From IMG/VR virus record IMGVR_UViG_3300009507_000010: a DNA stretch of 64,000 nt; one strand, given 5' to 3'. Shown piece by piece: positions 9,001-39,976 of this stretch; position 1 is the stretch's first letter; every line of letters begins with the position of its first letter. The notes beneath the pieces are model-generated. The model saw only the letters and a list, made by a program, of their open reading frames with translations, was not told where the DNA came from and made no database searches. The position numbers were made by a program, and so were the translations under genes. This DNA is from an uncultured virus (IMG/VR IMGVR_UViG_3300009507_000010). Lineage: Duplodnaviria > Heunggongvirae > Uroviricota > Caudoviricetes.

Positions 9001-10880
9001 ACAACTTAGATGTTGGCGGTAGCTTTAATGCTACAACTGGTTACATTAACGGTGGTGCAATTTGGACTGACGCTAATGACGGTGATGGCTCAGGCTTAAA
9101 CGCAGACTTGCTAGACGGCTTACATGCATCCAGCTTCCTACGTGTTGATACTGGTGCTGCATTTAGTGGTGGTGTATTTAAGATTAGTGCTCCTGCAACA
9201 ACAATTCAAAACACTGGCGAAGTTAACACATTACAGTTATATCAAGGCAACGGTGCTAATAGTTACGATGCATTTATGACATTCCATATTGGCGGTGACT
9301 ATGCTGTACACTTTGGTTTAGATGGAAGTACAAACGATCTAGCATACGGCGGTTGGTCAGCTGGTGCAGTTGCACATAAAGTATGGCACGCTGGTAATGA
9401 TGGTAGTGGCAGTGGACTTGATGCAGACTTGTTAGATGGACAAGATAGTGCATTCTTCCGTAACGCAAGTAATATTAATGCTGGTACTTTCCCAGATAGA
9501 TTTAGTAGTAGCGAACGTTACAACATTGGATTTATTGACGGTTACGGCGGCGATAGCTACGACAAACTGCGTGTATGGAATAGTGGTTCGTACTCAATAG
9601 GTATGCACAGTGGCCAAACAATGGGTTGGCTAAACGACTATGCTATGACATTCACAATGAATAACGATAGTGATCGTGGCTTTAAATGGCGTCATGAAAG
9701 TGATGGTGTTGCTGATGGTGCTATGGCACTTACAACAGATGGTCGTTTAACAGTTAAGCAGTTCATCTCAGTAGGTAATCAAACTACACGTTACCTAAGA
9801 GAACCAACAGGTAACTACGGTTCGATTCAGATTAGCGGTAGTGGATTTGGTAACTGGGAAGGCTTTAGCATTGACGGTCGTGCAGTATTCATGCATGACG
9901 GTGGCACTGCAACTGGTATCTTCAACGATGTAGATAACGAATGGTTGTTCTACGGTGTACACAACGCACAAACTGAAATGATGCATAATGGTAGTTGGAA
10001 AGTTCAAACACGTTCCAATGGTGCAAACATTGCAGGCGAGCTATATGTTGATAACTGGGTACGCATTGAAAGCAATTCAGGTATTTACTGGGAAGGTGGC
10101 AACTATGCTGGATGGCACATTTATCCACAAGCAACTAACAGAATCCACATGCGTTCAGCTAACAGCGGAAGTTGTGAAGTTTCTCTTGCTAACAGTGCAA
10201 ACACTATCTATGGTAGATTATATGCAGATGATGCATCACAAGGCTTCCTAAACGAAGATGGCAACTGGGCACTACGTAGCTACAACAACGACGGTGTTTC
10301 ACCTGGTTGGAGATTCTACGAAAACGGTAACGAAAGCTGGACAGGCAACCCAGGTAATGACGTTGGTAAGATTGAATATCACGCTAACAGATTCTACATT
10401 GCATCAGGTGCTAACTCCGATCGTGTTGTACAGTTTAGACGTGATGGAACAGATGTTTCATACGTTGATAACAGTGGTGTTTACCAAGGTACTGCTGCAA
10501 GTGCTAACTGGGCTGACTTGGCAGAGAAATACTTAGCTGACGAAGTTTACGCACACGGTACTGTACTTGCTATTGGTGGCGATGCTGAAGTTACATTGTT
10601 CAAACCAGGCATGAAACTAGCAGGCGTTGTTTCAACACAGCCGGGCTTGATGATGAACCAAACAGACGATAACAGAGATGATCCGATGTGGCCGTTCGTT
10701 GCACTTAAAGGTCGTGTACCAGTTATGATTAATGGTTCAGCTAAGAAAGGCCAGTATATCATTGCAGATCAAGACGGTAAAGGTCGTGCTGTAGACGAAC
10801 TAAGTACTATAGCAGAATACACTTTATTAATTGGTACTGCATTAGAAGATGGTACAGATGTAGTTGAAGTGAAGGTATAA
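3..10880 (+). CDS. Giant tail fibre/tailspike-like virion protein, 5'-truncated (>3625 aa): N-terminal helical CxRD repeats, beta-helix-like region, HG(L/F)xxG(D/Q)-type repeats, GLDADLLDG fibre motifs, C-terminal peptidase G2-like intramolecular chaperone
   Basis: The frame of ORF 510..10880 is open back to position 3 (AKSVVTNTPII...), so the real start lies outside the window. Motifs: TIMVSTGEYKEDNPVIIPDYVSIVGDNLRTTIIRP (beta-helix entry), GSGL(N/D)ADLLDG x2, C-terminal WADLAEKY...GVVST.PG...VALKGRVPV. Confidence 0.85.
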   Translation, partial: AKSVVTNTPIIDTTQVAVAQQFDGTKTATASEAATVESLGQKVVDFYDNGVGEAPNETQTQDVGLLNAETLIDNNKTFIQNEVIAFLNNKYSGFSFDAAKCSRDTGYIVDAANFDLLYSGNAESHYAGITYLNATASLVRSDQKQETLAGIDYARSLAEKVVLGQQVDYLYQTTVAQNTELTPGTQTEATTVFNNISKVYSILNNGIGTANGVVTTDAGKLNSETLIDQNQDFIKEEVIGYLTTTYPGFSYDQNKCRRDVGYILDAISYDLTHGGNNESIQAALAYYQWTAKDAVNLQLAETRAGITYAIDLAKLVIVNQDPATSYQGIFAQFKDAGNPGDATSQTILTGLGSLIDDIITDGDSTTIGLDIDPNNSVPSAVQDTVNANAILAANKEFIQAEVVAFIEENFGNFNYDPVACERDVGLIVDAVKFDIEHGGDAESIFAGISYYNNVTTGTGEITGDAIEVLRKQLQPTLDAVEYARDLLANVVLQNAVSNLYQSGTTQTFDGTNPSTTSVAQTVFNRANTILTILKNGLGTTNSFTKTTGIGALNTEALLQANTAFLQEEVLGYINNQYPGLTYDQASCRRDVELIVDAIAYDLTHGGNTNSIAAGTAYYRQAAALVVTGQSTETLAGLVHLKELAQKVVRNVTVDVTYSATPQVFDGANPGDVTSANTVGTLADIVIDIVDDGLSPYINITANGALTTDQDILDAGALIASNKLFIQKEVVAYVDGSWINFSSNYNQTTCSRDVGLILDAINFDLTWGGTSNAVAAGIAYFKQSSQLTLQRQLVQTIDGIMHAIRLAQQVVENYPVVSFQNTAAQVTDNLNPGSAEAITKIAELGALIEDIVIDGASATAGVTIFGNGIVPNSNIAVQNAADLIALNRSFIQAEVVSYINTYFTNFTYDTDFCYRDVGLFIDAIQYDLIFGGNERAIEAGKSYYIGNTIVIPGQEFQTVLANRYFQSLVDNILQNIVNKKLYQNVTGQITDPTKIVDGTTLGIVEAEFNTIVDIIENGPTSPNIPTEVEGAFNISYTTIMVSTGEYKEDNPVIIPDYVSIVGDNLRTTIIRPLNANQDIFRIRNGAYLLGVTFKDGLDAFNVPSFTGRYCTAFDDPFDTGVDRTGYIGLRDRPLITQSPYIQNVSIISFLGLSGCLVDGSKVITPNVPRFAIEAENPVFGETPEQGKSMVANAYTMLSFGGIGWRLTNDAYAQIVSCFQIFLGNGCWCQSGAYLSVTNSATNFGLYALRSSGYSANSFVFDRGVIAEVGAQASQQKLITVGTKRTPVNQFVIRLYDDDEYNNLANDITNSFKTIPNIVYFNAGELGELYGDAANYEVVAVGSTTFTVQIGSGKNLGSWVEGGTVDINGAFNPAAVLSASYNNTNGALEIEVTTLPNIGDIVTLTTLTFDGTNYPVNEEGSLSLEDNTITIPGHGLVTGDALTYRRNGNIEINGFADQGLYYVEVLTDDIIRLYQDDSRGFVADIIDVSTGQHYFETQTEEFFIDDIILDADSNKLTHNKYQVLTLAPGTYNFEPGDTIEATTGVYRNKAFVYTYEAATRQLTVSVEKADNSGSLTRIFFDATSIIDRDSSAIPQSNIPVTGFTSRTDLFTAEFTIDPTIVGGVLTNTGALKGTFIRLHRPSIVNSSSHTWEYAGSGTDYNALPQNGGITREEFEQFSDLPGRVYSSGTNELGDFKVGDFIVAENRTGNITFKNTVTVGELSALKLAVSDVVIEAISTDPGLGDNEPGGATDTRLITQNAARSFLANRLGDFIDKNVSTNSVSGAVPQMNAQGLLNSDIIPATRNFSLFTTDKKFGRFNLTDDIPAQEPLQGDIAQERYSRTFFTLSAPIALNEDDVIIELNTGATAIVDEDNGGAATVYLANIEGTFSNNISGNVLNVRGSNTTTYITNTGSSEVRDIQYTMVQDSSSQFLRYLPSGAAFVNGQTITAANSKTQGVITGQVEGVALALDLGNISTGNGYVPSTGSQTYKGVVLSNVSGTGTGAIADISVTNGKVTNVDLTRGGSGYAVGNALTATVDQLGGQNTQDFQVSILGVDNRVFVELLAGKFVATTSSNDYTEDGNAVVTTVPLGNTTLTAFNADTIGNGGNVDYPTSRITINSHIFDNGDVVNYASSPNPAIGGFIQGESYFVKVVDANTIELYNRYDLNAANKVIFTSSSTGTHAFIINYVDTRKDRIYAQDHGFTNGQAFRFVGANPPTGMASGGYYYAGTVSQNTFSVHEFQQDAENSVNGVTQGAINFIQTGSGSADFIHQNITIYGEVNTSGNVETNWALTGSANVDASNIVSGVISTSRLAAVGTANSDTYLKGDSSWDYATRTVRTALNSPLNITGNFYTSGGQNFYFKNTQFDIDRTDGTLGNQSFTNLGVAAFSKAQFNVNSGEVELKAGVLDAGTLDGLDSQYFLDPGNLLNPVPVSRGGTQIDQYIAGDMIYATSPTTLNRLPIGSQGAVMVVDELGNPAWSNDVAPFVEDTNNFGVSRPLEIRHDVTNTPAVGIGVGMQFQVETANNNREVGGTIDAVASDVTFGSEDFSFKFNLMAAGFLAERMVLDSLGNLAIDGDLNVDGGDIKTTKTSATVYDTTVTSLSIGRAATSVTIGADKTGELRVRNATLVVGGDSIETQPVDAKIKAPNSLGTNKQGPDLTIQGGASTGSGVAGSVFIDTGASGSSGSTSNTQVNRVEISGSDNHTHNLDFGRSSQGTQQIGKVGVKGPITGQFNVNGSVLELTPGAGTGSGQGAKVNIYGSNSIGSGSGIQSSELIASFSGDAIRLNKDVITQATSLGTNQSTFDLVNDTATTLNIGGAATAIDIGASSGYLHVNSADQAVSTTTGALRVDGGGSFGKNLYVGGNLVAAELTLTGAIDGNSYNVGGIEVIDTNRRFISSGGTTGELSKVHGISFDWDGNYGAVGGYVNHGISSRNETWGANDSLSINSYNNVNVRLDTNSNNAAASTFFRINNDVSQTNGNIVLSARGDGKVGINKDPSGTYNLDVGGSFNATTGYINGGAIWTDANDGDGSGLNADLLDGLHASSFLRVDTGAAFSGGVFKISAPATTIQNTGEVNTLQLYQGNGANSYDAFMTFHIGGDYAVHFGLDGSTNDLAYGGWSAGAVAHKVWHAGNDGSGSGLDADLLDGQDSAFFRNASNINAGTFPDRFSSSERYNIGFIDGYGGDSYDKLRVWNSGSYSIGMHSGQTMGWLNDYAMTFTMNNDSDRGFKWRHESDGVADGAMALTTDGRLTVKQFISVGNQTTRYLREPTGNYGSIQISGSGFGNWEGFSIDGRAVFMHDGGTATGIFNDVDNEWLFYGVHNAQTEMMHNGSWKVQTRSNGANIAGELYVDNWVRIESNSGIYWEGGNYAGWHIYPQATNRIHMRSANSGSCEVSLANSANTIYGRLYADDASQGFLNEDGNWALRSYNNDGVSPGWRFYENGNESWTGNPGNDVGKIEYHANRFYIASGANSDRVVQFRRDGTDVSYVDNSGVYQGTAASANWADLAEKYLADEVYAHGTVLAIGGDAEVTLFKPGMKLAGVVSTQPGLMMNQTDDNRDDPMWPFVALKGRVPVMINGSAKKGQYIIADQDGKGRAVDELSTIAEYTLLIGTALEDGTDVVEVKV
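303..2800 (+). repeat. Six ~155-167 aa protein repeats with core CxRD(V/T)xx(I/F)(V/L/I)DA...D(L/I)xxxG
   Basis: Cys codons at 303, 768, 1260, 1761, 2247, 2736 (spacing 465-501 bp). Confidence 0.9.
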
Positions 10881-10883: not shown

Positions 10884-11258
10884 ATGGGAAACATGACAAG
10901 AGCCTCGGCAAGAGATTACTTTACCGGAAATGCCGGGGCTCAGTTACGAGGATTTGACAAAACTATTAACTTTGCTGCTACAGTGTATGTTACAGGAAAC
11001 GTGGACGGTGGCCGTGCTGGAACTGCATATGGTAATAGACGTTATGAATACGTAAATGCACCTAACAGTGATTACAACGGAAATGTTTATCCAAATACTA
11101 CACAAGTAGATGCAACCCAATTAATTGATCAAGCACTTGATGCAATACAACGAACTTGCGATTTAATTGAAGGTCGTATTAGCAATAGTTACTTTGATTG
11201 GAGAATATGTCACGCAAGTTGTCATTATAGCTGCCACGGATCAAGAGGGAGAAGATAA
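10884..11258 (+). CDS. Putative RiPP-like precursor/substrate protein A (C-terminal CHASCHYSCHGSRGRR)
   Basis: 124 aa; starts 3 nt after the tail-fibre stop; triple C-H-x-S repeat at the C-terminus; upstream of a radical SAM array. Confidence 0.7.
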   Translation: MGNMTRASARDYFTGNAGAQLRGFDKTINFAATVYVTGNVDGGRAGTAYGNRRYEYVNAPNSDYNGNVYPNTTQVDATQLIDQALDAIQRTCDLIEGRISNSYFDWRICHASCHYSCHGSRGRR

Positions 11259-11430
11259 TGGCAGGATTAAGTCATGCACAATTAGAAGCTCGGTACTATG
11301 GTAATGCATATACAAGAATACGCACATTTGATAAAACTATTAACGTAGCAGCTACAGTATATTATGCGCGATATAATGGTAGTGGCCAAGGAACTGCATA
11401 TGGTAATAGACGTTATGAATACGTAAATGC
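11019..11430 (+). repeat. 41-bp identical direct repeat shared by the two precursor genes (11019-11059 and 11390-11430)
   Basis: GGAACTGCATATGGTAATAGACGTTATGAATACGTAAATGC occurs twice. Confidence 0.9.
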
Positions 11431-11641
11431 CGGGCAAGGTGCCTTTGCTAATACAGATATTCCAAATGGTGTAGGTGACAATTTATTAATAAGAGCAGGT
11501 GATATACAAACATTTGCTTCAAATGCAATCAGCAGAACAGTAAATGGCATAGAAGGAAGAATTACAAATTCGTATTTCGACTTTAGAATATGCCATTCAA
11601 GTTGCCATTATAGCTGCCACGGCAGCAGAGGGAGAAGATAA
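11258..11641 (+). CDS. Putative RiPP-like precursor/substrate protein B (C-terminal CHSSCHYSCHGSRGRR), paralog of A
   Basis: 127 aa; TAATG-coupled to A; shares FDKTINxAATVY, GTAYGNRRYEYVNA and IEGRIxNSYFDxRICHxSCHYSCHGSRGRR. Confidence 0.7.
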   Translation: MAGLSHAQLEARYYGNAYTRIRTFDKTINVAATVYYARYNGSGQGTAYGNRRYEYVNAGQGAFANTDIPNGVGDNLLIRAGDIQTFASNAISRTVNGIEGRITNSYFDFRICHSSCHYSCHGSRGRR

Positions 11642-12703
11642 ATGATAGGCGAAAGTTTTTACTATATCAGTAATAAAAAATACTTAGGACGATCTACTGC
11701 AATGCTTTCGGCATTATCAGAAAGTCCGTGGAGCGGAGTTCAATCAAGACGTATTAGCATAATAATGCCAGATGGACATAGTGCAGTGCAAGAAAGTTAT
11801 GCATCGTCGTTAAGTAATGATTATCCATTAGCAAACGCTGAAGATATGATAACATTTGCTAATTATAGCGATATTGATTCTTGGGAATATCTCAATAACA
11901 ATACTAAGGAATTTTTATTATTTGAATCAGCGCATGAGTTTTTGAAGATGTATGCAAAGTATACAGCTTCGCTATTAAAAACAACAACTAACAAAGATGT
12001 TAAACAAGTTGTTAAGGAATTTATTGTATTAGCAACTACTAGAGATGTAACATACTCGACAATGGGCGATTACAATGAAGGCGATATCAATGCAGCAGTA
12101 GAGGAAGTATTTGCAGAAAACGTATTCTATGATATTCCTAATGCAACCAGTAAGCACTGGGGTTACGATATTCTTTTCTTTATTAATGACAAGTACAATG
12201 AAAATGAAACCTATGCAGAAATTAATGTAACAACAACTGCATTTTTAAGAGAAAAGTTTACAGTACATAGTGATAAAATGATTCATGAAGTTATTAGTAT
12301 GTTACAATCTAAAATTGGTTATGTAAGTGTTATTAACAATATTATTGATTGGTTTAATAATAACGGAAATACAGAATGGAATAGAGCTGAGTTTGTGAAA
12401 GATGTATTTCAAAATACGAATCGCATGCAAGCACTATACAGATTACGTGACTTTTGGAACGATGTAGGTTCTAATAAAGAATTAATGACATTAATTGACG
12501 GGCATGACGAATGGGAATACGAAGAAGTATATAAAGAGTTTGCTAGAACTATTCCAATTGTCATACAAATTGCAGAGGGCGGATTTAATTTTGCAAATAA
12601 CGAAGCACTAAGAAGTGCATGGAGCGAGGTAGAGTTTTTCTATAAACGTAAAAGTCGTATTCCTTATTTGCTGTTTAAAATATTACCACTTGTACCGGAG
12701 TAA
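11642..12703 (+). CDS. Hypothetical protein in radical SAM cluster
   Basis: 353-aa ORF abutting precursor B; no motif recognised. Confidence 0.75.
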   Translation: MIGESFYYISNKKYLGRSTAMLSALSESPWSGVQSRRISIIMPDGHSAVQESYASSLSNDYPLANAEDMITFANYSDIDSWEYLNNNTKEFLLFESAHEFLKMYAKYTASLLKTTTNKDVKQVVKEFIVLATTRDVTYSTMGDYNEGDINAAVEEVFAENVFYDIPNATSKHWGYDILFFINDKYNENETYAEINVTTTAFLREKFTVHSDKMIHEVISMLQSKIGYVSVINNIIDWFNNNGNTEWNRAEFVKDVFQNTNRMQALYRLRDFWNDVGSNKELMTLIDGHDEWEYEEVYKEFARTIPIVIQIAEGGFNFANNEALRSAWSEVEFFYKRKSRIPYLLFKILPLVPE

Positions 12704-12705: not shown

Positions 12706-13413
12706 ATGACACAAGAAAATTACACACTGCCACTAAGTCCAACAGATTTAGCAGAAATATATAAAATAAAAACAAGCTCGGAAGATTACGTTCTCAAGGT
12801 TGATTATTTTAAAAGTAAGGAAGTACTGTCAGTAAAACATATACTCGTATATATTGCTAACACTAACTTTAAAGTACAGTTTGAAGGCATTGACGATGAA
12901 TTAATAAATGAATATATAATTTCTAATTTTATGGTTGATTGTCCGTTACTTTCTAGATACATTACGTTAATTGCTAAACGTAAACTAGGACAGGAATATA
13001 ATCAAGTTGACCAAGCATTAAATACTATAATGTCTGATGCTGACATTGATTCATATTTAGAAAAGAATGGCGAATTATTTGACGACTTGTTAGATAAACT
13101 AAAACATGTTACACTGTTTTGTTTAGATCAAGCTGGCAAATATGCCGACAAGTACAAAGAATTTATACCAGAAGAGATTGAACGTGCAGATGAAGAAACT
13201 CAAATTGGACTAAATATTGTATATATTGCAACATACTCGTTGGACTTGTTGTATTTGTTAGGTAATAAATTTGGTCCGTGGCCTACTAATAAATTAAATG
13301 TTAGAGTGTTTAATGATGTTAGTAAGTATCAAGGAGCAGACCTATATAATACATTACTAAAATATGGTGTTGCAACTAGTATGTTAGAATTATTTGACGA
13401 GGAATCAGCATAA
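12706..13413 (+). CDS. Hypothetical protein in radical SAM cluster
   Basis: 235-aa ORF; stop overlaps the start of the first radical SAM gene; no motif recognised. Confidence 0.75.
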   Translation: MTQENYTLPLSPTDLAEIYKIKTSSEDYVLKVDYFKSKEVLSVKHILVYIANTNFKVQFEGIDDELINEYIISNFMVDCPLLSRYITLIAKRKLGQEYNQVDQALNTIMSDADIDSYLEKNGELFDDLLDKLKHVTLFCLDQAGKYADKYKEFIPEEIERADEETQIGLNIVYIATYSLDLLYLLGNKFGPWPTNKLNVRVFNDVSKYQGADLYNTLLKYGVATSMLELFDEESA

Positions 13414-14594
13414 TGACAATGCAACAATCATATTGTAAACAGATGAAGTATAGTGGGCCAGAAAGTCTACCTCCTTCACACGCCCAGAAGTTTGACGTAT
13501 TAATTAACTTTGAAGGCCTTACTGGCTGCGAATATGGTTGTTTAGGATGTTTTGTTAACAAGAATCAAGACGTTACTACAATGAATCAAATGCTAACAAC
13601 TGCAAAAGAACTTGCAGATGGTGTAAAGCGTACAGGTTTAAACTTACGTGAGTTTGTTGTAGGTCCGACAGATTTATTCTCTGCGTCAAATACTGATAGC
13701 ATTCTTAATAATACTATTATACAAGATATAATGCGCGAACACACTAATGCACGTATTGCTACACCTAGTAAGATAGACGGCGTGAGCATGGAAAGGTTGC
13801 GAGAAGTATTTGCAATACTTGATGATCCTTCTAAGTATAGAGACGAAATGATCATTGAGTTTATTATGCCAGTTGGCGATGTTGATCGTATACTAAATGA
13901 CGAAGAATACTTTAAAGATATTAAATCAAAATTAGAATTCTTTAAATCCGAAACTCCCAAGAAAATTGACTGGAGTTGGACATTACAAGCAAGTAATGTT
14001 ATGCAAAAACATCTAACTAAAGAAAACTACAATAAACTGCTATATAAGATTCTTGATGAATATGAAACTATTCTAGAAATGAACCCAGCGTTCTCTAGAG
14101 CACCGAGTGTATTGCACCAGCGTAAGAACTTAGTAGCATGGAATAACTTCCTAAAAGAAGTAGTAGATCAAGACAATTTTAAAGACGTTACAATGAGTAT
14201 GGCTAACTTATATTGTAACTCCATGAACTTCATAGGGTTAACTGTTGTTCCTGGATTAGAGACGCCACGTGTATTTTTAAATGTAATGTTACACGAACAA
14301 GCATTCTTTACACAGCATAGGGATTTAGAAGTAACAGGACTAAGTTTTGAAGAAATTCTAGTCAAGAGGGATCACTTAATAGCACAAGGGTTAGCTAAGT
14401 CGTCTAAAGTTAAGGATTGTGCAGATTGCAAATATGCAGTAGCATGTGCAAACAGACTAATATTCCAAGCACAAGATGCAATGAACATGCACGAATGTTT
14501 AATGCCGCTAGAAGTATTAGAACTGTATAATCCGTTTGTTACTAGTAACGAACAGTGGAACGACGATGCTTTAAAAATCGTCAATGCTCGTTAA
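13413..14594 (+). CDS. Radical SAM protein (GPTD-type paralog 1) with C-terminal Cys cluster
   Basis: CEYGCLGCF (CxxxCxxC); VVGPTDLF; C-terminal CADCKYAVAC...C. Confidence 0.85.
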   Translation: MTMQQSYCKQMKYSGPESLPPSHAQKFDVLINFEGLTGCEYGCLGCFVNKNQDVTTMNQMLTTAKELADGVKRTGLNLREFVVGPTDLFSASNTDSILNNTIIQDIMREHTNARIATPSKIDGVSMERLREVFAILDDPSKYRDEMIIEFIMPVGDVDRILNDEEYFKDIKSKLEFFKSETPKKIDWSWTLQASNVMQKHLTKENYNKLLYKILDEYETILEMNPAFSRAPSVLHQRKNLVAWNNFLKEVVDQDNFKDVTMSMANLYCNSMNFIGLTVVPGLETPRVFLNVMLHEQAFFTQHRDLEVTGLSFEEILVKRDHLIAQGLAKSSKVKDCADCKYAVACANRLIFQAQDAMNMHECLMPLEVLELYNPFVTSNEQWNDDALKIVNAR

Positions 14595-15612
14595 CCTAAA
14601 CTCAACTCCTACAGGATTTAACAATTATATAGAAGGCATAAGCCCTAAGGATAATAACTTTCTTAGGACAGAAGTTCATGCTGATATATTACATGGATGC
14701 AGTCAAAAGTGTCCAGGGTGTTTCATTCCTAGAAAAAATCTTACTAATGCTGATCATCTTACAACACTATGCGATATATTGGAATCTAGTGCATATACAC
14801 CTGATGATGTTGTAATAGGTCCTACTGATATATTTGATGCTGAAAACTTTTGGGACTTAATGGACCATCCTAGTATGAAACGTTTATACAGTATTGCAGC
14901 ACTAAGTTTTAACTCAACACTACTACAGGACTACGACACTGTACTTGCCAAACACACTAAGATTTGGAGTCTTTACGAAGGATTGGATCGTACGCCTGAT
15001 ATAGATTTTAAAATAGTACTTGATATTACTAGATATTTACAAGGCGATATTGAAGACATGTGTCGCAAACTAGAACTTTTTAAACAAGGTAGTGTACAGT
15101 TTAGAGTAAACTATTACCCGGGTATATTTGATCGTGTGAGCTATAATGATTTATGTGATATGATTAAAGAAGACTTCAATGCTCCAGTAGTTATATTGCC
15201 AGGTTTCTTAACAGACAGAAATAGTCGAGGTAAAGTTAGTAAATTACTTCCGATGTTTTTAGACGAGCTACGTAAACAAGATATAAGACCCGAATACAAA
15301 CAGTTATACACGATGTTTGATGCAAACTTTAATAGTCACGGATGTACCAATTATAGTTTTTACAACGGCAGCTTGTATATGAATCCATTTGTGTTTGACG
15401 GAATATTGCAGCGTACACAAGAATTTAAAGTAGACAATCTTAATACTAAAAACTTTTTAGCTGAAAATTTATCATATGCAGCATCTACTAAAGAATGTGA
15501 AAGTTGCGAATACTTAATGAGCTGTGCAGAGCGCAATGTATTGTTCTATATGAAGTCGAGAAATTTAACAGAGTGTGTTACAGTAAAGGAGTATACAAAT
15601 GCCGGTCATTAA
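14584..15612 (+). CDS. Radical SAM protein (GPTD-type paralog 2)
   Basis: CSQKCPGCF; VIGPTDIF; C-terminal CESCEYLMSC...C. Confidence 0.85.
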   Translation: MLVNLNSTPTGFNNYIEGISPKDNNFLRTEVHADILHGCSQKCPGCFIPRKNLTNADHLTTLCDILESSAYTPDDVVIGPTDIFDAENFWDLMDHPSMKRLYSIAALSFNSTLLQDYDTVLAKHTKIWSLYEGLDRTPDIDFKIVLDITRYLQGDIEDMCRKLELFKQGSVQFRVNYYPGIFDRVSYNDLCDMIKEDFNAPVVILPGFLTDRNSRGKVSKLLPMFLDELRKQDIRPEYKQLYTMFDANFNSHGCTNYSFYNGSLYMNPFVFDGILQRTQEFKVDNLNTKNFLAENLSYAASTKECESCEYLMSCAERNVLFYMKSRNLTECVTVKEYTNAGH

Positions 15613-16780
15613 AAATAACTTGTATTATGAGCTTACTACAGAAACGCAAACTAAGCCAGTAAGTGCAGTAAAAATACAGCTTGATGTGTTAGACGGGTGT
15701 GTACACGCTTGCCCCGGGTGTTTTGTACATCGTAGAGGAAATGCACCTGAAGTTGATCATTTAAAAGATTGCCGAAACTTTGTAAAACGAATTACAGATG
15801 TAGGTGTTTTAGTTGACGAAATACTCATAGGCCCAACTGACTGTTTATCTAGTGAAAACTTTTATGAAGTAATGAGCAATACTGATTTGTTAGCAATGAT
15901 AAATGAAAACTCTCCTATACTTGCTTTTACTACTACATTTTTAGAAAAGGATCTAACACATTTAGATCGTTGGATTACGTTTTTACATGACAATGTGAAT
16001 ACTGACACTGAAATAGAAATTGGCATAGCAACTGATCCTATGCGATATAAAGATATACTTTATATACAGCAATTAAAACGCTGTATTGCATATGTCGACC
16101 AGCATTTAAAACATGAATGTACATATACGTTTATTGTTAATATTAGAAACTATGACCTAGACTACGAGCAAATACATGATTTTGTAGTGAAGCAATTTGA
16201 TACAACAATTGACTTTATTCCAAGTGTAAGTCGCAGTCATAAAGCAAGTATCATACTACCTACACTAAATCAATTCAATGAATTTTTTGAAGCATTACCA
16301 GAAGATACTCATTTAAATAATATTATGGTAGATCACACACATGCTGGGCATAATTATACCGTATTAAATTTTAAAGGAGGACAGTGGTATCTAAGTCCGT
16401 TCCTTTATGAAAATATGGCATTGTATGATAATATGTTTGCAGTAAACAATCTAGACGAAGCATATGATCTTACTGTGTCACAAGTAGATCGAGCTAAAGG
16501 AACAGTGTGCGAAAACTGTGATTTATTTTTTAGTTGCTACAATAGAAAAATTATTTTATTACGTGACTACTTGGGTACTAAAGAGTGTATAGCGCCTAAG
16601 CAAAATATGTTAAAAAATATACATAACTATAATAAAAGTGCTGCTGAAATGTATGACTGGACAGGATATACTGTTGAGGGTGATAAGCAAGGATATCGTA
16701 AAAAATTCTTAATAACTAAAGACGGCGATGAAAGATTAGATGAAATAAAAAAGGTGTATCATGTCAATCGTAAAGGATAA
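15599..16780 (+). CDS. Radical SAM protein (GPTD-type paralog 3)
   Basis: CVHACPGCF; LIGPTDCL; C-terminal CENCDLFFSC...C. Confidence 0.85.
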   Translation: MPVIKNNLYYELTTETQTKPVSAVKIQLDVLDGCVHACPGCFVHRRGNAPEVDHLKDCRNFVKRITDVGVLVDEILIGPTDCLSSENFYEVMSNTDLLAMINENSPILAFTTTFLEKDLTHLDRWITFLHDNVNTDTEIEIGIATDPMRYKDILYIQQLKRCIAYVDQHLKHECTYTFIVNIRNYDLDYEQIHDFVVKQFDTTIDFIPSVSRSHKASIILPTLNQFNEFFEALPEDTHLNNIMVDHTHAGHNYTVLNFKGGQWYLSPFLYENMALYDNMFAVNNLDEAYDLTVSQVDRAKGTVCENCDLFFSCYNRKIILLRDYLGTKECIAPKQNMLKNIHNYNKSAAEMYDWTGYTVEGDKQGYRKKFLITKDGDERLDEIKKVYHVNRKG

Positions 16781-17855
16781 TTATTGGGAAGCAACAATGG
16801 GTCATAAAGACTATAATATCAGTGTAGGTGATGCACATGATATAAAAGTAAACATGACAGTTGACGTCCTTGACGGGTGCATACATGCTTGTGAAGGATG
16901 CTTTGTTAATCGCAGAAGACAGCAAGCATCTAATGATCAGTTTTCCAAAGTACTAGCTGCACAAAAAATGTTTAATCAAAATAACATTCGATTTAGCAGC
17001 ATAATACTTGGTCCTACTGATGTCTTTGGTAATTTAAATATACAGGACGTTTTAAAATTTGATAGTTTTAAAGAAGTAGTAAGTAACTGCACCACTGTCG
17101 GAATGATTAGTACACTGCTTAACGATGATACTCATATCAATCCTATAATAGATGGCTTCAACGCTATACCTAAATGTGAAGGTTTCTTATATGACTTTCA
17201 AGTAGTTATTGATGTTAAACGAGCACTTGATCCAGAATATAGAAAGAATCACTTAGCACGTATACATGATGTTTTAAATAGATTTACTGATCCCTTAAAC
17301 TTTACTATAATTTTTAATATGGATCAAGACTTTGCTGAGTTTGGAAATCTAGCAGAAATATGTCGTGTAATAAAAGAAGAGTACGACACTATTGTAGAGC
17401 CTATTCCTAGTTATCAGCGTTATGGTAAAGGAAAAATACACAACGATATTATTAGGGCGTGGGTTGATATAATAGAAGACACGTTCACTAAAGAAAATCA
17501 AGAATACCTAGCCATGACAATAGCTGACAAAAATCAAGGTGGCGCACTTGAATTAAATTATACATATAGTGCAGGAGAATTTTATTCAACTCCGTTTGTT
17601 TATGAAGTTGCACTTATACGTGACGAAAAGTTTAGAGTAAAAGATCCAACAGATATTAAAAGTTGGACTAGCTTAAAAACAGACTTGTATATAGATCAGC
17701 TTGCGTATTCCCCTAAAACGCTGCATTGTGAAACATGCAATCGTCGTGAAATATGTTTGAAAAAACACGTATTAAGTTATATGGAGCATTTTGACTTTAC
17801 GGAGTGTGTGTATCCTAGAGAAGTATTAAATGAATATAGGCCGTTAACATGTTAA
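16761..17855 (+). CDS. Radical SAM protein (GPTD-type paralog 4)
   Basis: CIHACEGCF; ILGPTDVF; C-terminal CETCNRREIC...C. Confidence 0.85.
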   Translation: MSIVKDNYWEATMGHKDYNISVGDAHDIKVNMTVDVLDGCIHACEGCFVNRRRQQASNDQFSKVLAAQKMFNQNNIRFSSIILGPTDVFGNLNIQDVLKFDSFKEVVSNCTTVGMISTLLNDDTHINPIIDGFNAIPKCEGFLYDFQVVIDVKRALDPEYRKNHLARIHDVLNRFTDPLNFTIIFNMDQDFAEFGNLAEICRVIKEEYDTIVEPIPSYQRYGKGKIHNDIIRAWVDIIEDTFTKENQEYLAMTIADKNQGGALELNYTYSAGEFYSTPFVYEVALIRDEKFRVKDPTDIKSWTSLKTDLYIDQLAYSPKTLHCETCNRREICLKKHVLSYMEHFDFTECVYPREVLNEYRPLTC

Positions 17856-18976
17856 AAAATGATTGGCAAACTTATCTGCAAAATAATAAACAATCTCTTT
17901 CACCAGAGGGGTTTATAGATCCTGCTGATCAAAACAAGATAAAAATTCAGTTAATGCTTGAAATATTAGAAGGTTGTGCTTACAACTGTTCGGGCTGTTT
18001 TGTTAAAAGACGAAAAAACTTTGGACAGGGATTAGGGCTAGACTATGCTGCACAACTTGTTGACGAGTTAACTGATCAATATGTATTAGATGATATTATT
18101 GTAGGACCTACTGATTTCTTCTCCAGCGGAAATATAATACAAGTCTTAGAAGATCCTAGATTTAAAAAGATAGTAAACGCATTACCCGAAGACGGCGGAC
18201 TACAGCATAACTGTTCAATAGACTTTTTTATAGGAAATGATCGAGTAAAAGAAATTATTACTTATATTGAAAATAGCTATCTAAAGGATCGTCCGTTTGA
18301 TGTACAAATTGCAGTAGACTTGCATATGTTAGATAATCCACATGTACACGATTTAATAAGTGAACGCCTAGAAGCTATGGAAAATAGTTCTGTAGAATAT
18401 GAAGTAAGCCTGCTGTGTAATATAACTCAAGACATTGACGACGATGTATTAGACAAAATTGAAACTGTTAGAAACAAGTGGAATACTGTTGTTGAATGGG
18501 GGCCTAGTTTAGTACGTGCCATGACAAATAGGCCTGATAAAATGTTAGGTATGATACAAGGATGGAATGAAAGTATAGGAAAGGTTGCTAGCATAGATGA
18601 AAAGCGTTTTACACAAAACTTTATATGGCAACAGAGCGATACTAGTCATAAAAACTTTAATGAAGTAATTGTTACAGTTAATAATGACCAGTTATATATA
18701 GTTCCGTTTTTATATGAAAATTCTCCTATATATCATCCTAGTTTCGAAGTACCGATAGGCGAAAATATATTAAACAGTATTTTTGATAAAAGGCACGAAT
18801 TGCAATTAACACAATATGCTAACATTCCTAACTTAGTATGCAACGGATGTAAGTATGTAGAAAATTGTAGCTCTAGATTAATACCAACGCTAATCACAGA
18901 TGTAGTTAAGCATAACCAGTGTCTAATAAATAAAAACATAATGGCATTATACGACAATATAGGATATAATAAATGA
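17849..18976 (+). CDS. Radical SAM protein (GPTD-type paralog 5)
   Basis: CAYNCSGCF; IVGPTDFF; C-terminal CNGCKYVENC...C. Confidence 0.85.
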   Translation: MLKNDWQTYLQNNKQSLSPEGFIDPADQNKIKIQLMLEILEGCAYNCSGCFVKRRKNFGQGLGLDYAAQLVDELTDQYVLDDIIVGPTDFFSSGNIIQVLEDPRFKKIVNALPEDGGLQHNCSIDFFIGNDRVKEIITYIENSYLKDRPFDVQIAVDLHMLDNPHVHDLISERLEAMENSSVEYEVSLLCNITQDIDDDVLDKIETVRNKWNTVVEWGPSLVRAMTNRPDKMLGMIQGWNESIGKVASIDEKRFTQNFIWQQSDTSHKNFNEVIVTVNNDQLYIVPFLYENSPIYHPSFEVPIGENILNSIFDKRHELQLTQYANIPNLVCNGCKYVENCSSRLIPTLITDVVKHNQCLINKNIMALYDNIGYNK

Positions 18977-20181
18977 GCTGCGGAACAGAAATACTAAAAG
19001 CATTAATGCCGGATAACATTACTGATGATCACTTGTTGGACACAAAGGCACAGCAAGAAGCAAATGCAGTAACACACGCAATATTAGAGCGTAAGCGTCC
19101 TCTTATTGGCGAAATTGAAATAACACTTTTTGAAAACTGTCCTATTAATTGCGACTTTTGCTTCCATGATAAAGAAAGCGAAGTAGGCATGACATATGAA
19201 GAAATGCTAATGAAACTTCCTCTGGTAGAAGCACACTGTAAAAAGATGCAGGGCAAAGTACATGCTATGCAGTTTAATATGGTAGGTGGAGAGCTGTTTC
19301 AAGACCGTGCAAAAGATACACTGTATCCTATGTTTTTTGATTTAATGGTAGAAATTAAAAAAATAACAGATAGGTACGGACACGTTATACAAGTAGTTTG
19401 GGTTAGTAACTTTTTGTTTAAGTATCACGAAGATGTACGCAAACTGCTAGACGATCTAAATGCAGTAGACATACCAAGTAAACTGATTGCTAGTTATGAT
19501 CTAAGTGGACGTCCTACAGGCGGACAATACACTAAAAATATCGAACGTTTTAAAGATTATATTTCTACTATCAATTTAGTAGCAACAACAGACAGTATCA
19601 ATGCATTGTTTGCAGGAGATGATTATTTCAATTATCTATATGAAAACTTTGATTTGTTCTTTGATGATTTTATTCCAGATCCGGGATACGACCATTTAGT
19701 ACCAGCTGATTCGCTTTACTTAAAGTTTATGAAATACATTGCTGATAATTATCCAGAAGTAAATCCGTATAAAGAACTTATAGAAAATGATGTTAATCAA
19801 ATGCATTGTATGAGCTTAAACAAGTTAACTATTTTTCCGGATAACACAACTGCAAATTGCCGTTGGCATCGTTATACACGCAATGATTTTCAACACGCAT
19901 ATATTAGAAAAGACAACACTAACCTCATGCAAGCATACATGGACGAAGTTGGTTGTTTAAGTTGTCAATATTTTGATCGTTGCGGCTTCCGTTGTTATAC
20001 GCAATGGGACTGGAAGAATCGTGCTAGGGATTTACCACCTGGCATTTGTCCTATAAAAGAGTTCTTTAATTATGTAGGGGATACTGATCAAACATCATCT
20101 CTTCCTCATAATAAGACCTTACGTCGGGCACCATTCCCGTCTGAGATGAAGGATCAGGAAGGCTTATATGGTCGAGAATAG
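18973..20181 (+). CDS. Radical SAM/SPASM-like protein
   Basis: CPINCDFCFH; MVGGELF; C-terminal CMS...NC...CLSCQYFDRCGFRC...C. Confidence 0.9.
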   Translation: MSCGTEILKALMPDNITDDHLLDTKAQQEANAVTHAILERKRPLIGEIEITLFENCPINCDFCFHDKESEVGMTYEEMLMKLPLVEAHCKKMQGKVHAMQFNMVGGELFQDRAKDTLYPMFFDLMVEIKKITDRYGHVIQVVWVSNFLFKYHEDVRKLLDDLNAVDIPSKLIASYDLSGRPTGGQYTKNIERFKDYISTINLVATTDSINALFAGDDYFNYLYENFDLFFDDFIPDPGYDHLVPADSLYLKFMKYIADNYPEVNPYKELIENDVNQMHCMSLNKLTIFPDNTTANCRWHRYTRNDFQHAYIRKDNTNLMQAYMDEVGCLSCQYFDRCGFRCYTQWDWKNRARDLPPGICPIKEFFNYVGDTDQTSSLPHNKTLRRAPFPSEMKDQEGLYGRE

Positions 20182-20485
20182 CATTGTAAGTTTCTTTATC
20201 TTCGCTATAGGGTTTAAAGTACGGATCATTGCCGGCTAATAAATCTTTATCATCTAGTAGCTCGTAGAAATCGTATTTAAAATCTAAACTTATCCAATAA
20301 GCATAACAGATTGCTACGAAATAACTTTTAGCAGGATACACCCATTCGTCTACACGTTCGTAGAAATGTTTCACTGCCCAAATAACACTGTCTTCTTCTG
20401 TACGAATGTCGACTTTGTTTAAGTCGTCAGTAAATTCTGTTGCAGTACTATTAAATAGTTGTAATCTAGTCTTCCAGTTCAGCAT
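20066..20485 (-). CDS. Hypothetical acidic/aromatic protein, last gene of the minus-strand arm of the cluster
   Basis: 139-aa ORF overlapping the upstream radical SAM stop; composition typical of a real protein. Confidence 0.65.
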   Translation of the reverse strand: MLNWKTRLQLFNSTATEFTDDLNKVDIRTEEDSVIWAVKHFYERVDEWVYPAKSYFVAICYAYWISLDFKYDFYELLDDKDLLAGNDPYFKPYSEDKETYNAILDHISLPDPSSQTGMVPDVRSYYEEEMMFDQYPLHN

Positions 20486-21383
20486 ACCAGTCTATTAGTC
20501 CCTTATATCCATTACAGCCGTTGTTTAAGTCTTTAACATATCGATAATGTTCAGTTAAGCATTTACCGTAGTATTTACAATTATGACATATTTCACTGAC
20601 GTTTTCTGTAGACTCTTTTGAAGCCCACAACAAGTATTCGTCAAACGTATTATATTCTTCAAAAAACTCATTATCGTTCTTGTCAAATTCAAGCACACCG
20701 AATTTAGCATCAGGCGTAATGTATACATGATCGTTACTAAATGCATTACGATTGCCTTCTAATACATCTTCTAAATCATCTACGTTAACAAAATCAAACT
20801 GCTTTAATACAGGAGATTCTATCCATTGCTGCACATGTTGTTCAAAATCTCTATGTGTAACAGGGTGTGCATTTGCTTGATTAGTTGAGTAAGGTTTTAT
20901 TTCTACACACTTAACATTTTGCATCATATTAAATGTATTAATCATTAAGTCTACATTAGTAGCTAATACCTTAGGACTTGCTAAAACTAGTACACTAATA
21001 TCCTTAGGAAAAAGCATCATATTCTGTAATACTTTATCACTTTGTTCTCGAGCTTCGAAGTCATAGCTTACACTAATATGCACATCATCATCTAAAAAGA
21101 AATCAGGCCTTGCACTTAAATTAGTATTGATGTTAATTCTACCACTAAAATATTTTCTAATAACAGTTTTCAAACTATAAAAATATTCTTTATCTAGCAT
21201 ACCTATTTCGCCACCGTATAAATCTACGTGTGTAATCGGTACAGACACTTCACTAAGACGCTTGTCTAGATCTTCCGGAGTAATACGCTTTTTATTACCT
21301 AGTTGGGCTGTAGTAAGATAACAAAAGTCGCAGCGAAAGTTACAAAAATATGTAGGATTGATACTAACAGTAAATTCAGTCAT
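20466..21383 (-). CDS. Radical SAM protein with C-terminal Cys cluster
   Basis: PTYFCNFRCDFCY; LYGGEIG; CHNCKYYGKC...GC. Confidence 0.9.
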   Translation of the reverse strand: MTEFTVSINPTYFCNFRCDFCYLTTAQLGNKKRITPEDLDKRLSEVSVPITHVDLYGGEIGMLDKEYFYSLKTVIRKYFSGRININTNLSARPDFFLDDDVHISVSYDFEAREQSDKVLQNMMLFPKDISVLVLASPKVLATNVDLMINTFNMMQNVKCVEIKPYSTNQANAHPVTHRDFEQHVQQWIESPVLKQFDFVNVDDLEDVLEGNRNAFSNDHVYITPDAKFGVLEFDKNDNEFFEEYNTFDEYLLWASKESTENVSEICHNCKYYGKCLTEHYRYVKDLNNGCNGYKGLIDWYAELED

Positions 21384-22410
21384 ATTCCCTCACATAAGGA
21401 GTAACGCTATCAGGGTCTTGATTATTCAACTTTAAAATAGTTGGAGCAAGTTGTTTCATTTCAAAACAATGTTCTTCTACTTGACCTTCACGCTTGTGAT
21501 CTCTAACAGTTTTACGACAGCCGTTACATATTCTAAACATAGGACACGTTAGGCATGCCTGCTTCATTGAAATTAGTTCTGGCGCATCTTGCAACGGTGT
21601 ACTAAATCCTCCTGACATTTCATATTCAAAGTCGATAGGATAATCTTTGTCGTCACCTAAACTACCGCAACTATAATAGTCGCCGCCTGGATTGAACGCA
21701 CGTATGCCTTCGTCACAATGTCTGTTTTGAGGACAAGTAGTTGTATCACTTTGTAGCCTACGAACCATTTGTTGTGTATTGTATTCCCAGTCCATTAGTC
21801 CAGCGTTGTAAATATCAATGTATGCTTTATATATTTTACTAAGACGATATGTATAGCCCTGCTCGCCGCTTGCCATTGCATAGTTTACTTTGCAAACTAC
21901 ATTCATCTTTTTAGCAAGCTCTACTGTTTTAATAATAGTATGCTCGTTCATGTCGTCAATAACAGCAATAAACTCAGGACGATAACCACAAAGTTCTAAC
22001 ATTTTATCTGATACTTTCCAGAAGTCTTCTTCTGTAAATATTGAAAAGTCACCTTTAAGTCTACCAGCACCGTATTGAAAACTAGTCGAGATTCCCATAC
22101 GTGGGTGATTGAATAAATCTATCCACTTTTCGGGTTTAACGTAAAACGGCCATAAGTTGCTAGTAAAGCTAATAGTTGCCGGCATATCGTGTGTATCGAG
22201 ATATTCTATTATTTTCCAATAATATTCTGGAGACATCATGAGTGGATCACCACCGTTAACAATAATTGTATTAGTGTCGGGATATCTATCTAAAAATCTA
22301 AAGATATAATCGTGATCTAATTGTCCTGCATTATTAGGATCGATCTTAGTCGAAGAACAAAATGTACATTTGAAGTTACATGCTTCAGTGGGTTTAATAA
22401 TAAGATCCAT
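21376..22410 (-). CDS. Radical SAM/SPASM protein
   Basis: IKPTEACNFKCTFC; NGGDPL; CPQNRHC...YSCG...CLTCPMFRICNGC...HC. Confidence 0.92.
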   Translation of the reverse strand: MDLIIKPTEACNFKCTFCSSTKIDPNNAGQLDHDYIFRFLDRYPDTNTIIVNGGDPLMMSPEYYWKIIEYLDTHDMPATISFTSNLWPFYVKPEKWIDLFNHPRMGISTSFQYGAGRLKGDFSIFTEEDFWKVSDKMLELCGYRPEFIAVIDDMNEHTIIKTVELAKKMNVVCKVNYAMASGEQGYTYRLSKIYKAYIDIYNAGLMDWEYNTQQMVRRLQSDTTTCPQNRHCDEGIRAFNPGGDYYSCGSLGDDKDYPIDFEYEMSGGFSTPLQDAPELISMKQACLTCPMFRICNGCRKTVRDHKREGQVEEHCFEMKQLAPTILKLNNQDPDSVTPYVREYD

Positions 22411-23438
22411 TACGGCGCTAACTCCAACATTAGTGTTTTAGGAGCAGGACATATATCGCCTTCCCATGCAAGTTTGTAACAATCGCCACCGCAGTAAAAC
22501 TGCACAGGACATTCATAACATTTAGAATTTCTATTCATTTCAGTTGCAATATTACACATTCGACTTGGATGAAATAATACATGATCTATGTCATCAGAAA
22601 TGTGTGCATAGTGTGCAGTTGGCGCACTATTGGGACAACCTGCAATGCGACCGTCTGCATTTATAGTAAACAGTTTTTGTTCACAGTCTCTACAGAATGT
22701 ACTTGCACGAGTAATGCCATCCTCAAACTTCATATATACACTTTCAATTGTAGAGTTGTATATTTTATCTCTAAGATTTCTTGCTTGTGTTTCCTTGTGC
22801 AACTGTAAGTACCAATCTTGTATTTCTATATTAGTAGGAAATATCTTAGGATTGCGCACAGCATTGCCGTCTGAAGTTAATCTTTCAAAGTCAACTTCTT
22901 GTATACCTAAGTCGATCAAATATTCGATAACATCTGCAGGATTTTCTTGTATCATATCTTTACTTAAACTAACAAAACACTTGATGTCTACTCCATCTGC
23001 TGTTAGTTGACGCACATTATCTTCCCATAGTTTTTGCTGTTTAGCATTAGCCCAACGTATAAACGGATCGTAACTTGTACCTAAACGTTTGTGTAGTATT
23101 CCGTATATTAGATCAAGTTTCTCGTCTGTAAGTTTATATGTTAAGTTAGTGGTCATGCCGTAGTAAGCTCTGTCACCCCAAACATCATAAGTCAGTTTGT
23201 GAAACAGTTTCATATCTTCTACGGGTGCAAGCATAGGTTCACCGCCGTGGAACTCGAAAGCTATTCCGCTATTGGGCATTTTAGCATACAGTCTATTAAA
23301 AAAATCTGCTGTAGCACGGGGATCAAAATAAATCTTACGTCCGTTGATGCCATTAGTAAAACAATGAGAACAGTTTAAATTACAAGTCTCAGTTGTTTTA
23401 ATATAAGACATATACTGTGTGGCGTTATGTACGGTCAT
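22410..23438 (-). CDS. Radical SAM/SPASM peptide maturase-like protein (anSME-like)
   Basis: IKTTETCNLNCSHCF; FHGGEPML; CRDC...INADGRIAGCP...CYECPVQFYCGGDC...C. Confidence 0.93.
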   Translation of the reverse strand: MTVHNATQYMSYIKTTETCNLNCSHCFTNGINGRKIYFDPRATADFFNRLYAKMPNSGIAFEFHGGEPMLAPVEDMKLFHKLTYDVWGDRAYYGMTTNLTYKLTDEKLDLIYGILHKRLGTSYDPFIRWANAKQQKLWEDNVRQLTADGVDIKCFVSLSKDMIQENPADVIEYLIDLGIQEVDFERLTSDGNAVRNPKIFPTNIEIQDWYLQLHKETQARNLRDKIYNSTIESVYMKFEDGITRASTFCRDCEQKLFTINADGRIAGCPNSAPTAHYAHISDDIDHVLFHPSRMCNIATEMNRNSKCYECPVQFYCGGDCYKLAWEGDICPAPKTLMLELAP

Positions 23439-23901
23439 CTAATCCCCAAGATAGCATAATGCTATTGTCTTTATTTAAAGCACGGTGCGGTGTTTCTGCA
23501 GGCACAAACAAGCAATGTCCACTGTGTGCTGTTATCTCTGTACCGTTTATTTCTAATGTTTTACTTCCATGAGTAACTTGCAATACTAAGTCTACAGGAT
23601 CGGTGTGAATACCGAATGATGGAGAATTAGGCTTTGCGTAGAACACATGACAAGTACCATTATTAAAATTACAAATCTGTTCATACTTTTCTAATTTAAT
23701 TGTTATATCATCACGCAGCAAAAGATTATCTACTACTCCGAGATATGAAATATAATCATTTTCGGTTATATAATGTTGTAAGCCTTCACTGTCAATGTAG
23801 CTAGTCATTACTCTATTATATGCTAAGTCACTGCGGAGTATATCATAAAACTCTAACATTGACATTTTAACTTTAGGAATCATATCAACACCACACGTCA
23901 A
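23425..23901 (-). CDS. JmjC/cupin_4-like 2OG-dependent oxygenase (YcfD/ROXA-like)
   Basis: SFGIHTDPVDLVLQVTHGSKT (HxD) and LFVPAETPHRA (distal His). Confidence 0.7.
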   Translation of the reverse strand: MTCGVDMIPKVKMSMLEFYDILRSDLAYNRVMTSYIDSEGLQHYITENDYISYLGVVDNLLLRDDITIKLEKYEQICNFNNGTCHVFYAKPNSPSFGIHTDPVDLVLQVTHGSKTLEINGTEITAHSGHCLFVPAETPHRALNKDNSIMLSWGLDDRT

Positions 23902-24415
23902 ACGGCATGCAAATTCGCATGTCTTTTACAGTCTCGACATTGTGCCAAACAAAGCTAGGAAATATAAACAAATCACCAGCCTGAGGCTTTAATACAACAG
24001 GTTCAAATATATGATTTAAGTTACTGTTGTAACCTCTATTAGCATTACCTCTAGGATCGTGTAATACTAGTTCTCCGCCTACAGGAGGAGTTGCAAGATA
24101 AAGTATTCCAGTAAACTGACTTCCTAAGTGGTTGTGTATATGATGTGTTGCACCTTGTCTATAAACATGTACCCACCAGCTAAAAGAAAATGATTTCTGT
24201 TTTGGAAAGTCTGATTCTAAATAAGATTTAATAGAATTGTCAATAAACTCGTGTGCTAATTTTAATTCTGAATACTCGTCAATATCAGGACGCTCGTGAT
24301 CACTTATACCATCAGGAAACTTCATGATAATATCGTTAACTACATTGCCTAACGCAATTTGATCATCCCACGTAAACTGTGCAAGTGTAGTAGGCCAAAG
24401 TTCATTAAGTATCAT
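23885..24415 (-). CDS. 2OG-Fe(II) oxygenase (phage TIGR02466-like family)
   Basis: HIHNHLGSQFTGILY...LVLHDPRG...GDLFIFPSFVWHNV...RI. Confidence 0.8.
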   Translation of the reverse strand: MILNELWPTTLAQFTWDDQIALGNVVNDIIMKFPDGISDHERPDIDEYSELKLAHEFIDNSIKSYLESDFPKQKSFSFSWWVHVYRQGATHHIHNHLGSQFTGILYLATPPVGGELVLHDPRGNANRGYNSNLNHIFEPVVLKPQAGDLFIFPSFVWHNVETVKDMRICMPFDVWC

Positions 24416-39885: not shown

Positions 39886-39911
39886 GCTAAAAAAAGAGTT
39901 GAGGTAATGTT

Positions 39912-39938: not shown

Positions 39939-39976
39939 TATTATATGCACATATAATTTAAAGGATAAATATTTAT

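Follow-up and report, generated by a model that had tools for sequence, protein, structure and literature searches.

An unnamed family with a variant SPASM radical SAM fold in a phage gene cassette with a Cys-His-tailed protein

The window described here is a stretch of 64,000 nucleotides from an uncultured virus (IMG/VR record IMGVR_UViG_3300009507_000010). At positions 13413 to 18976 it carries five contiguous genes on the plus strand, called D1 to D5, each of whose open reading frames overlaps the preceding gene by 1-20 nt. Their products and the homologs of these, together called D, form a genuine but unnamed family with a variant SPASM radical S-adenosylmethionine (SAM) fold. With a probability of about 0.5, they are optional tailoring enzymes that have a rebuilt SAM pocket and act on a protein with a Cys-His tail. 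This estimate is based on conserved residues that face the barrel together with both predicted cluster sites, on paralogs that have been kept separately, and on a distribution like that of optional extras. The substrate and the reaction are read from gene context only.

Annotators spot radical SAM enzymes by the GGE motif and by the aromatic residue of CxxxCx-phi-C, and D rewrites both. The family comprises about 230 clusters that lie below Pfam and NCBIfam cut-offs, with cluster ligands still under strong selection. It would offer either a new mode of binding SAM or a case in which the radical SAM fold does its work with no SAM. The genes around D suggest that a protein of the phage particle undergoes radical chemistry. 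Cultured phages with 0, 1 and 2 D copies exist, so the question is testable.

The five proteins share CxxxCxGCF (CLGCF, CPGCF, CPGCF, CEGCF and CSGCF in D1 to D5), GPTD (5/5) and a single CxxC-x5-C-x16/17-C set. All of these features are present as claimed in an earlier note made from the sequence. The other four radical SAM proteins of the cluster, R6 to R9, keep GGE or GGD and have Phe or His before the third Cys, as was also stated there. The single C-terminal Cys set is found in all five D proteins but is not unique to them, since R7 has the same.

Pairwise identity among D1 to D5 is 18-25%. Because BLAST links the five at E values of 1e-11 to 1e-28 and finds no match to R6-R9 below 0.4, their likeness is not due to chance. 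All five match PHROG 31457, which is unannotated. No D protein is above a Pfam cut-off; the best score, to PF04055, is 17.1 bits against a gathering threshold of 29.5, and D1 and D2 have no match. The proposal that the five form one clade is borne out by trees from FastTree (130 rows) and IQ-TREE (54 rows), which hold all D rows apart from R6-R9 with support of 99 and 100; R6-R9 being the only outgroup, the trees separate D from these four enzymes and do not place it within the whole radical SAM superfamily. The hhalign probabilities of 88 for R9, 79 for R7, 66 for R6 and 4 for R8 single out no closest canonical sister. The proposed equivalence of GPTD and GGE also holds up. In a profile-profile alignment IGPTD of D falls on mGGEl of R6 (against R9 this position is displaced by a gap), and in a model of D3 strand beta-2 ends at G78 and GPTD follows the strand.

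A search with the D profile among 1.84 billion representatives found 232 clusters (at 50% identity) at E <=0.001, and 205 at 1e-10. Two samples of the family were compared. One consists of 134 full-length representatives with the cluster motif, taken from the best 150 of the profile search, and the other of 184 unique proteins derived from loci, many of which were found by motif seeds. Among the 134, xP[TVSA]D occurs in 120 (GPTD in 92), most others have G[AS]TD, and none has GG[ED]. Gly precedes the third Cys in 181/184 and 125/134 proteins. Phe following the third Cys is constant in the window but lineage-specific, as it appears in only 37 of the 134. Judged by sequence, the signature of the family is CxxxCxGC with x[PAS]TD and AuxII (auxiliary cluster II) cysteines only, without the Phe. 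Within the family there is a divergent sub-branch with CxNC or CxGC-FY and LPTD (L065:8526, L066:8166, L125:8425, L132:8386, L177:8659, L178:11638); it directly precedes the gene of the tailed protein, and a second R9-like enzyme follows. Two other homologs, P0175 and P0179, carry about 200 extra N-terminal residues with no Pfam or cassette match.

No threshold of Pfam or NCBIfam is reached by the family. In a set of 99 aligned members, matches at E <=0.001 came from just four NCBIfam models, chiefly NrdG over the cluster motif. NrdG (TIGR02491) resembles D in its GCxxxCxGC motif, and its hidden Markov model (HMM) matches 15 of the 99 weakly, over the first ~60 residues. The window D proteins score 16-20 bits where the cut-off asks for 126, and so fall outside NrdG. 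NrdG differs from D in its length of 154 aa, its retained GGDP and its lack of an auxiliary cluster. The E. coli protein has CxGC spacing (of the type CHECPGCY). This weakens the case for taking Gly before the third Cys to show that SAM is no longer used. Of the altered SAM binding suggested earlier, the change in SAM-contact motifs stands, while this residue alone does not imply SAM loss.

The AlphaFold (AF2) model of D3 has a predicted local distance difference test score (pLDDT) of 84.8 and contains six barrel strands and a hairpin. A fold search with this model finds anSME as the best match, with a Z of 15.0 (root-mean-square deviation 4.6, 300 aligned), followed by ChlB (14.9), TigE (13.8), 5wgg (13.5) and SuiB (12.3). 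Unrelated barrels reach Z <=8 in the same search, and Foldseek concurs with the SPASM-type matches. The best structural neighbours of D3 are peptide- or protein-modifying SPASM enzymes. A PDB sequence search with the D profile gave nothing significant (the best radical SAM entry had E 0.23). D is modelled as a SPASM-type radical SAM fold, with a predicted partial (beta/alpha)6 barrel. The maturases anSME (4K36), ChlB (9GM3), TigE (8VPO), 5WGG and SuiB (5V1Q) share with D the partial barrel, a SPASM-like C-terminal part, CxxxCxxC and CX2CX5CXnC. In comparison with anSME-type maturases, identity is 10-14%, AuxI cysteines are missing from D, no family HMM is passed, x[PAS]TD stands for GGE and Gly precedes the third Cys. 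Residues ~345-385 of D3 form a conserved C-terminal extension of low model confidence that is missing from the other paralogs and is possibly a docking segment.

D is predicted to bind two [4Fe-4S] clusters, one at CxxxCxxC and one at the four cysteines of AuxII, without AuxI. CxxxCxxC follows strand beta-1 and is present in 5/5 window proteins and 184/184 unique homologs. The AuxII cysteines, CX2CX5CXnC, occur in 181/184, and the x16 spacing in 126/134. The AuxI pattern CX2CX5CX3C is found in 0/184 and 2/134 proteins, and the hairpin region has no conserved Cys. All 184 proteins have the three N-terminal Cys and also the Asp; N87 is found in 178, N181 in 180, P208 in 167 and the four C-terminal Cys in 181. 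D81, N87, N181, P208, S209 and R212, which face the barrel, are conserved along with both cluster sites.

D1 to D5 each cluster with their own counterparts from other phages. The duplications therefore predate those phages, and the copies have been kept and are not interchangeable. Selection was estimated for ten locus pairs from the ratio of nonsynonymous to synonymous substitution rates (dN/dS). From L001, a window-type locus that is protein-identical to the window, to L004, L006 and L013, dN/dS is ~0.04-0.19 for D1-D5 and 0.04-0.13 for R6-R9. In the ten pairs, a few of which have saturated dS, dN is below dS wherever both can be estimated. D1 to D5 are old paralogs under purifying selection comparable to that on the canonical enzymes.

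The D genes belong to a cassette with a fixed core and variable extras. On the plus strand of the window, an unbroken run with intergenic gaps of <=3 nt leads from a tail-fibre-like gene through two small (CHxS)3-RGRR proteins, u353, u235 and D1-D5 to R6. On the opposite strand u139, R7-R9, a cupin gene and a 2-oxoglutarate (2OG)-Fe(II) oxygenase gene converge on it. This kit is widespread, and it probably modifies a virus-particle protein chemically. The extras are tailoring enzymes, among them B12-binding radical SAMs, an enzyme resembling Trp halogenases, a methyltransferase and additional 2OG oxygenases, and the distribution of D resembles theirs. They are spread over L069, L121-L123, L129, L130, L142, L152, L144 and L132, with the Trp-halogenase-like enzyme at L144:16717-18054 and the methyltransferase at L132:12429-13298. 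Mutual exclusion of D and B12 radical SAM genes was considered and rejected, both being present in L065, L068, L132 and L178.

Among the conserved proteins of the cassette, u235 is a candidate partner of D. It lies directly upstream of a D gene in 38/42 D-bearing loci, which are not independent lineages, and it is duplicated in L054, L056 and L057, where D expands. Its model (pLDDT 91) has no PDB match above Z 4.8 and no match in the Atlas; the similarity to anSME (Z 3.8, 133 aligned) and to ChlB is within noise. Several radical SAMs are among its weak fold matches (Z 3-3.8). The possibility that u235, u353 and u139 are degenerate D copies was rejected, with hhalign probabilities of <=1.2.

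Three CHxS units end both small window proteins and their homologs, and tailed proteins have no Pfam domain above cut-off. In phage Atu_ph07 the tailed protein is AUZ94952 (L158:4983-5873). It is encoded ten coding sequences before gp180 and has a computed mass of 31.89 kDa, equal to that listed for gp170, so the two can be equated. Published sources are cited here and below from excerpts. In purified Atu_ph07 virions, gp170 was found with 8 peptides and 35% coverage and had its highest abundance in gel band 1 (PMC6102473 Table S5). Its neighbours gp144-169 and gp171-175, with the nearby enzymes among them, are not among the virion proteins listed in the excerpts, and neither is the nearby gp180 of 4449 aa (PMC6102473). 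The Cys-His-tailed protein is thus likely to be a virion component. The description of the loading buffer in the same excerpts names no reductant, and gp321 behaves like gp170 (PMC6102473). The presence of gp170 in the top band suggests slow migration that disulfides could explain, or else cross-links made by enzymes. The finding links a virion protein to the cassette, in a phage that has no D, and does not identify the target of D.

Copy number varies widely. From 73 fetched loci with a tailed protein and R6-R9, 52 distinct cassettes were obtained, each with 10 kb per side, in a sample skewed to five-copy loci by two D-seeded scans. D copies number 0 in 15 of these cassettes, 1 in 4, 2 in 7, 3 in 2, 4 in 1, 5 in 22 and 6 in 1. 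The zero-copy class includes L149, an otherwise intact cassette in which D is split into frames of 91 aa and 245 aa. Searches of whole records found no D in the complete genomes of Atu_ph07 (490 kb) and Phosso (469 kb), one copy in RSF1 and two in pPa_SNUABM_DT01. A 173 kb record rated 100% complete also has no D. The RSF1 cassette is broken between R6 and R8 by a gene for an HNH endonuclease and two genes for dihydrofolate reductase (L048:14147-15925). The tandem run of five is real in the window but is a local gene order, and in most relatives D1 lies apart, upstream of two other genes.

D is not confined to phages. It was found in 6/301 sampled genomes of the phylum of genome G006, where cassettes lie amid ordinary bacterial genes on contigs of <=2.8 Mb. 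Mapped D copies in phages and Bdellovibrionota sit in the cassette, except in L059 and L061. In Bdellovibrionota, cassettes adjoin Peptidase_S74 (fibre chaperone) proteins, one of them with a prepilin N-methylation motif (L067:4532-8271, L069:17582-18625). Genome G147 has seven D copies beside a tailed protein of 104 aa with a single CHS unit and SRSRR at its end. The same region (L175-L176, G147:C4:15000-54800) holds two R6-like genes, many 2OG oxygenases, glycosyltransferases and a prepilin-type gene.

As optional tailoring enzymes, D proteins would add to a core modification made by the canonical R6-R9. SAM would still bind; the near-invariant Thr-Asp would take the role of Gly-Gly-Glu, with the nucleoside site lined by the Asn of beta-5 and the Pro-Ser of beta-6. 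The 5'-deoxyadenosyl radical would then act on the substrate, AuxII would carry off the spare electron, and each paralog would keep its own site or chemistry.

A number of observations weigh against this. In radical SAM enzymes GGE, the aromatic residue before the third Cys, SxD and TN take part in SAM contact. In D several of these contacts are changed jointly: GG[ED] is found in 0/184, Gly replaces the aromatic residue, and neither the Ser of SxD on beta-4 nor the Asn of TN on beta-3 is retained. The residue after the third Cys is F/Y/H in only 78/134, so a NrdG-like reading does not cover all members. A lone D copy at L059:9920-10969, and also in L061, has no cassette gene within 10 kb; Thg1 and a nucleotidyltransferase lie near it. 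Finally, the tail has the same three CHxS units with 0 or 6 D copies, and no extra target site is visible.

The joint change of SAM contacts and the constancy of the visible substrate lend some weight to the main rival explanation, which is possible but less likely. D may not cleave SAM at all and may consist of two-cluster Fe-S helpers for the canonical enzymes, such as an electron relay, a cluster donor or an activating partner. In one variant SAM might be kept out by the invariant Asp serving as the fourth ligand of the iron, for which TsrM-type enzymes offer a precedent. A helper role fits proteins in which every SAM motif is altered yet seven Cys and one Asp hardly vary, and it fits a core that functions without D in complete genomes. 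It is also in keeping with the position of D after u235 and the doubling of u235. The Dph1-Dph2 pair, in which Dph2 holds a regulatory Fe-S cluster (PMC11048331), provides a model. Dph2 is obligatory, whereas D is optional. Dph1-Dph2 and D also differ in fold. Moreover, a relay has no obvious need for 5-7 separately conserved paralogs, D count does not track the count of canonical enzymes, and N87, N181, P208, S209 and R212 line the barrel as expected of a ligand site. Less probable still is a role of D as active enzymes on another substrate (for instance the giant fibre or some other protein of the virion, or else a small molecule) that share the locus only. The indifference of the tail to D number, the copy outside the cassette and the surroundings of the seven copies in G147 agree with this; the cassette setting of the other mapped copies and the peptide-modifying structural neighbours speak against it.

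The earlier note had proposed one enzyme for each CHxS unit, or a hetero-oligomer of the five. The genes overlap and are likely co-translated, and D1 and D3 are both retained in the complete window-type cassettes mapped. However, 0-6 copies occur with a constant three-unit tail and 7 with a one-unit tail, while D2, D4 and D5 have been lost independently and single-copy cassettes such as that of RSF1 exist. This contradicts an enzyme per repeat in its strict form and makes an obligatory complex of five subunits improbable. Partial inactivity of some subunits, also raised in that note, may apply, with Fe-S ligands and one Asp that are near-invariant and selection as strong as on R6-R9. The idea that D are decaying pseudo-enzymes without function, to which their dispensability in many genomes and the split copy in L149 might point, is refuted by the selection data; the cluster ligands are also near-invariant in the best 150 of ~230 clusters. 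A bolder explanation is rather doubtful. It holds that Thr-Asp in place of GGE marks new cofactor chemistry, either non-canonical SAM cleavage or an Asp-capped cluster free of SAM. One to seven such copies, in a kit of phages and predatory bacteria, would cross-link or decorate a Cys-His tail carried by a protein of the virion or of a surface fibre. If so, virion structural proteins would be a substrate class for radical chemistry like that of RiPPs (peptides made on ribosomes and modified post-translationally), and the 32 kDa Atu_ph07 homolog in the top gel band would reflect cross-links.

Known systems resemble D or its cassette in part. The CX2CX5CXnC cysteines of AhbD have been attributed to AuxII, and AuxI cysteines are absent from part of these enzymes (PMC10452713); the assignment in D follows this. 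As in D, the SPASM part of AhbD from non-methanogenic archaea is reduced to the four AuxII cysteines (PMC10452713). AhbD differs in acting on a tetrapyrrole; no sequence link between the two was found, no AhbD model being among the NCBIfam matches. The nearest studied system, the antiphage system HXS (HxsA/B/C/D), combines a His-X-Ser repeat protein with radical SAM enzymes and a partner protein, as the cassette does, and two radical SAMs are required for a +8 Da change in the repeat (PMC13128918). The cassette differs in that a likely virion protein has Cys-His-X-Ser x3 and then RGRR at its C-terminal end, it is encoded by phages, and it has 4-11 radical SAM-fold genes. The HXS effector is periplasmic and has a peptidoglycan-binding domain; the tailed proteins here show no Pfam domain above cut-off, and a homolog is found in virions. 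Against the HxsB/HxsC HMMs, R9 scores 33.5 bits against 370 and R8 22.8 against 267.9, and D has no match.

A literature search, which left subscription papers and bioRxiv supplements outside its scope, found no paper on the D family or the cassette. The presence of eight radical SAM genes within one structural cluster in phage 332-Vera, which may be this cassette, was called highly unusual (PMC12390700). Radical SAM and 2OG genes of Chiangmaivirus are merely listed (PMC11898562, PMC8066314), and the excerpts of PMC5468394, PMC9062424 and 10.1101/2023.10.20.563219 add nothing on D.

Table 1. Genes of the cassette in the window.
Gene	Description	Position	Strand	Remarks
Fibre-like	Giant tail-fibre-like protein, 3456 aa, head of gene run	510-10880	+	PHROG 5342 tail fiber, E 9e-219
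Candidate substrate 1	124 aa, C-terminus of three CHxS units and RGRR	10884-11258	+	Atu_ph07 homolog gp170 in virions
Candidate substrate 2	127 aa, tail of three CHxS units and RGRR	11258-11641	+	
u353	Conserved unknown cassette protein	11642-12703	+	
u235	Conserved unknown core protein, candidate D partner	12706-13413	+	
D1	Atypical radical-SAM-fold protein, 393 aa	13413-14594	+	C39/43/46, GPTD 84-87, AuxII-type Cys 336/339/345/362
D2	Atypical radical-SAM-fold protein, 342 aa	14584-15612	+	C39/43/46, GPTD 79-82, Cys 305/308/314/331
D3	Atypical radical-SAM-fold protein, 393 aa	15599-16780	+	C34/38/41, GPTD 78-81, Cys 304/307/313/330
D4	Atypical radical-SAM-fold protein, 364 aa	16761-17855	+	C40/44/47, GPTD, Cys 323/326/332/349
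D5	Atypical radical-SAM-fold protein, 375 aa	17849-18976	+	C43/47/50, GPTD, Cys 331/334/340/358
R6	Canonical radical SAM/SPASM-type enzyme, core	18973-20181	+	FC, GGEL
u139	Conserved unknown protein	20066-20485	-	PHROG 20737
R7	Canonical radical SAM, core; AuxII-type Cys set only	20466-21383	-	GGEI
R8	Canonical radical SAM/SPASM enzyme, core	21376-22410	-	GGDP
R9	Canonical radical SAM/SPASM enzyme, core	22410-23438	-	HC, GGEP
Cupin	Cupin/JmjC-like oxygenase	23425-23901	-	
2OG	2OG-Fe(II) oxygenase	23885-24415	-	

The window is part of a linear virus record of 127 kb that is ~36% complete by CheckV. Its genes include tail sheath, tail tube, terminase, UvsX/UvsY-like and helicase genes, and the virus is a large myophage. 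The T4 late promoter TATAAATA has one match in the whole window and none at the D locus. Genes for SSB, UvsX-like and UvsY-like proteins are grouped at 47507-50405. The cluster at 50665-56184, possibly for sugar modification, combines a heptose/nucleotidyltransferase-like gene with one for a methyltransferase and with several unannotated proteins of 220-310 aa. Two tail-tube-like genes stand in tandem at 39259-41305.

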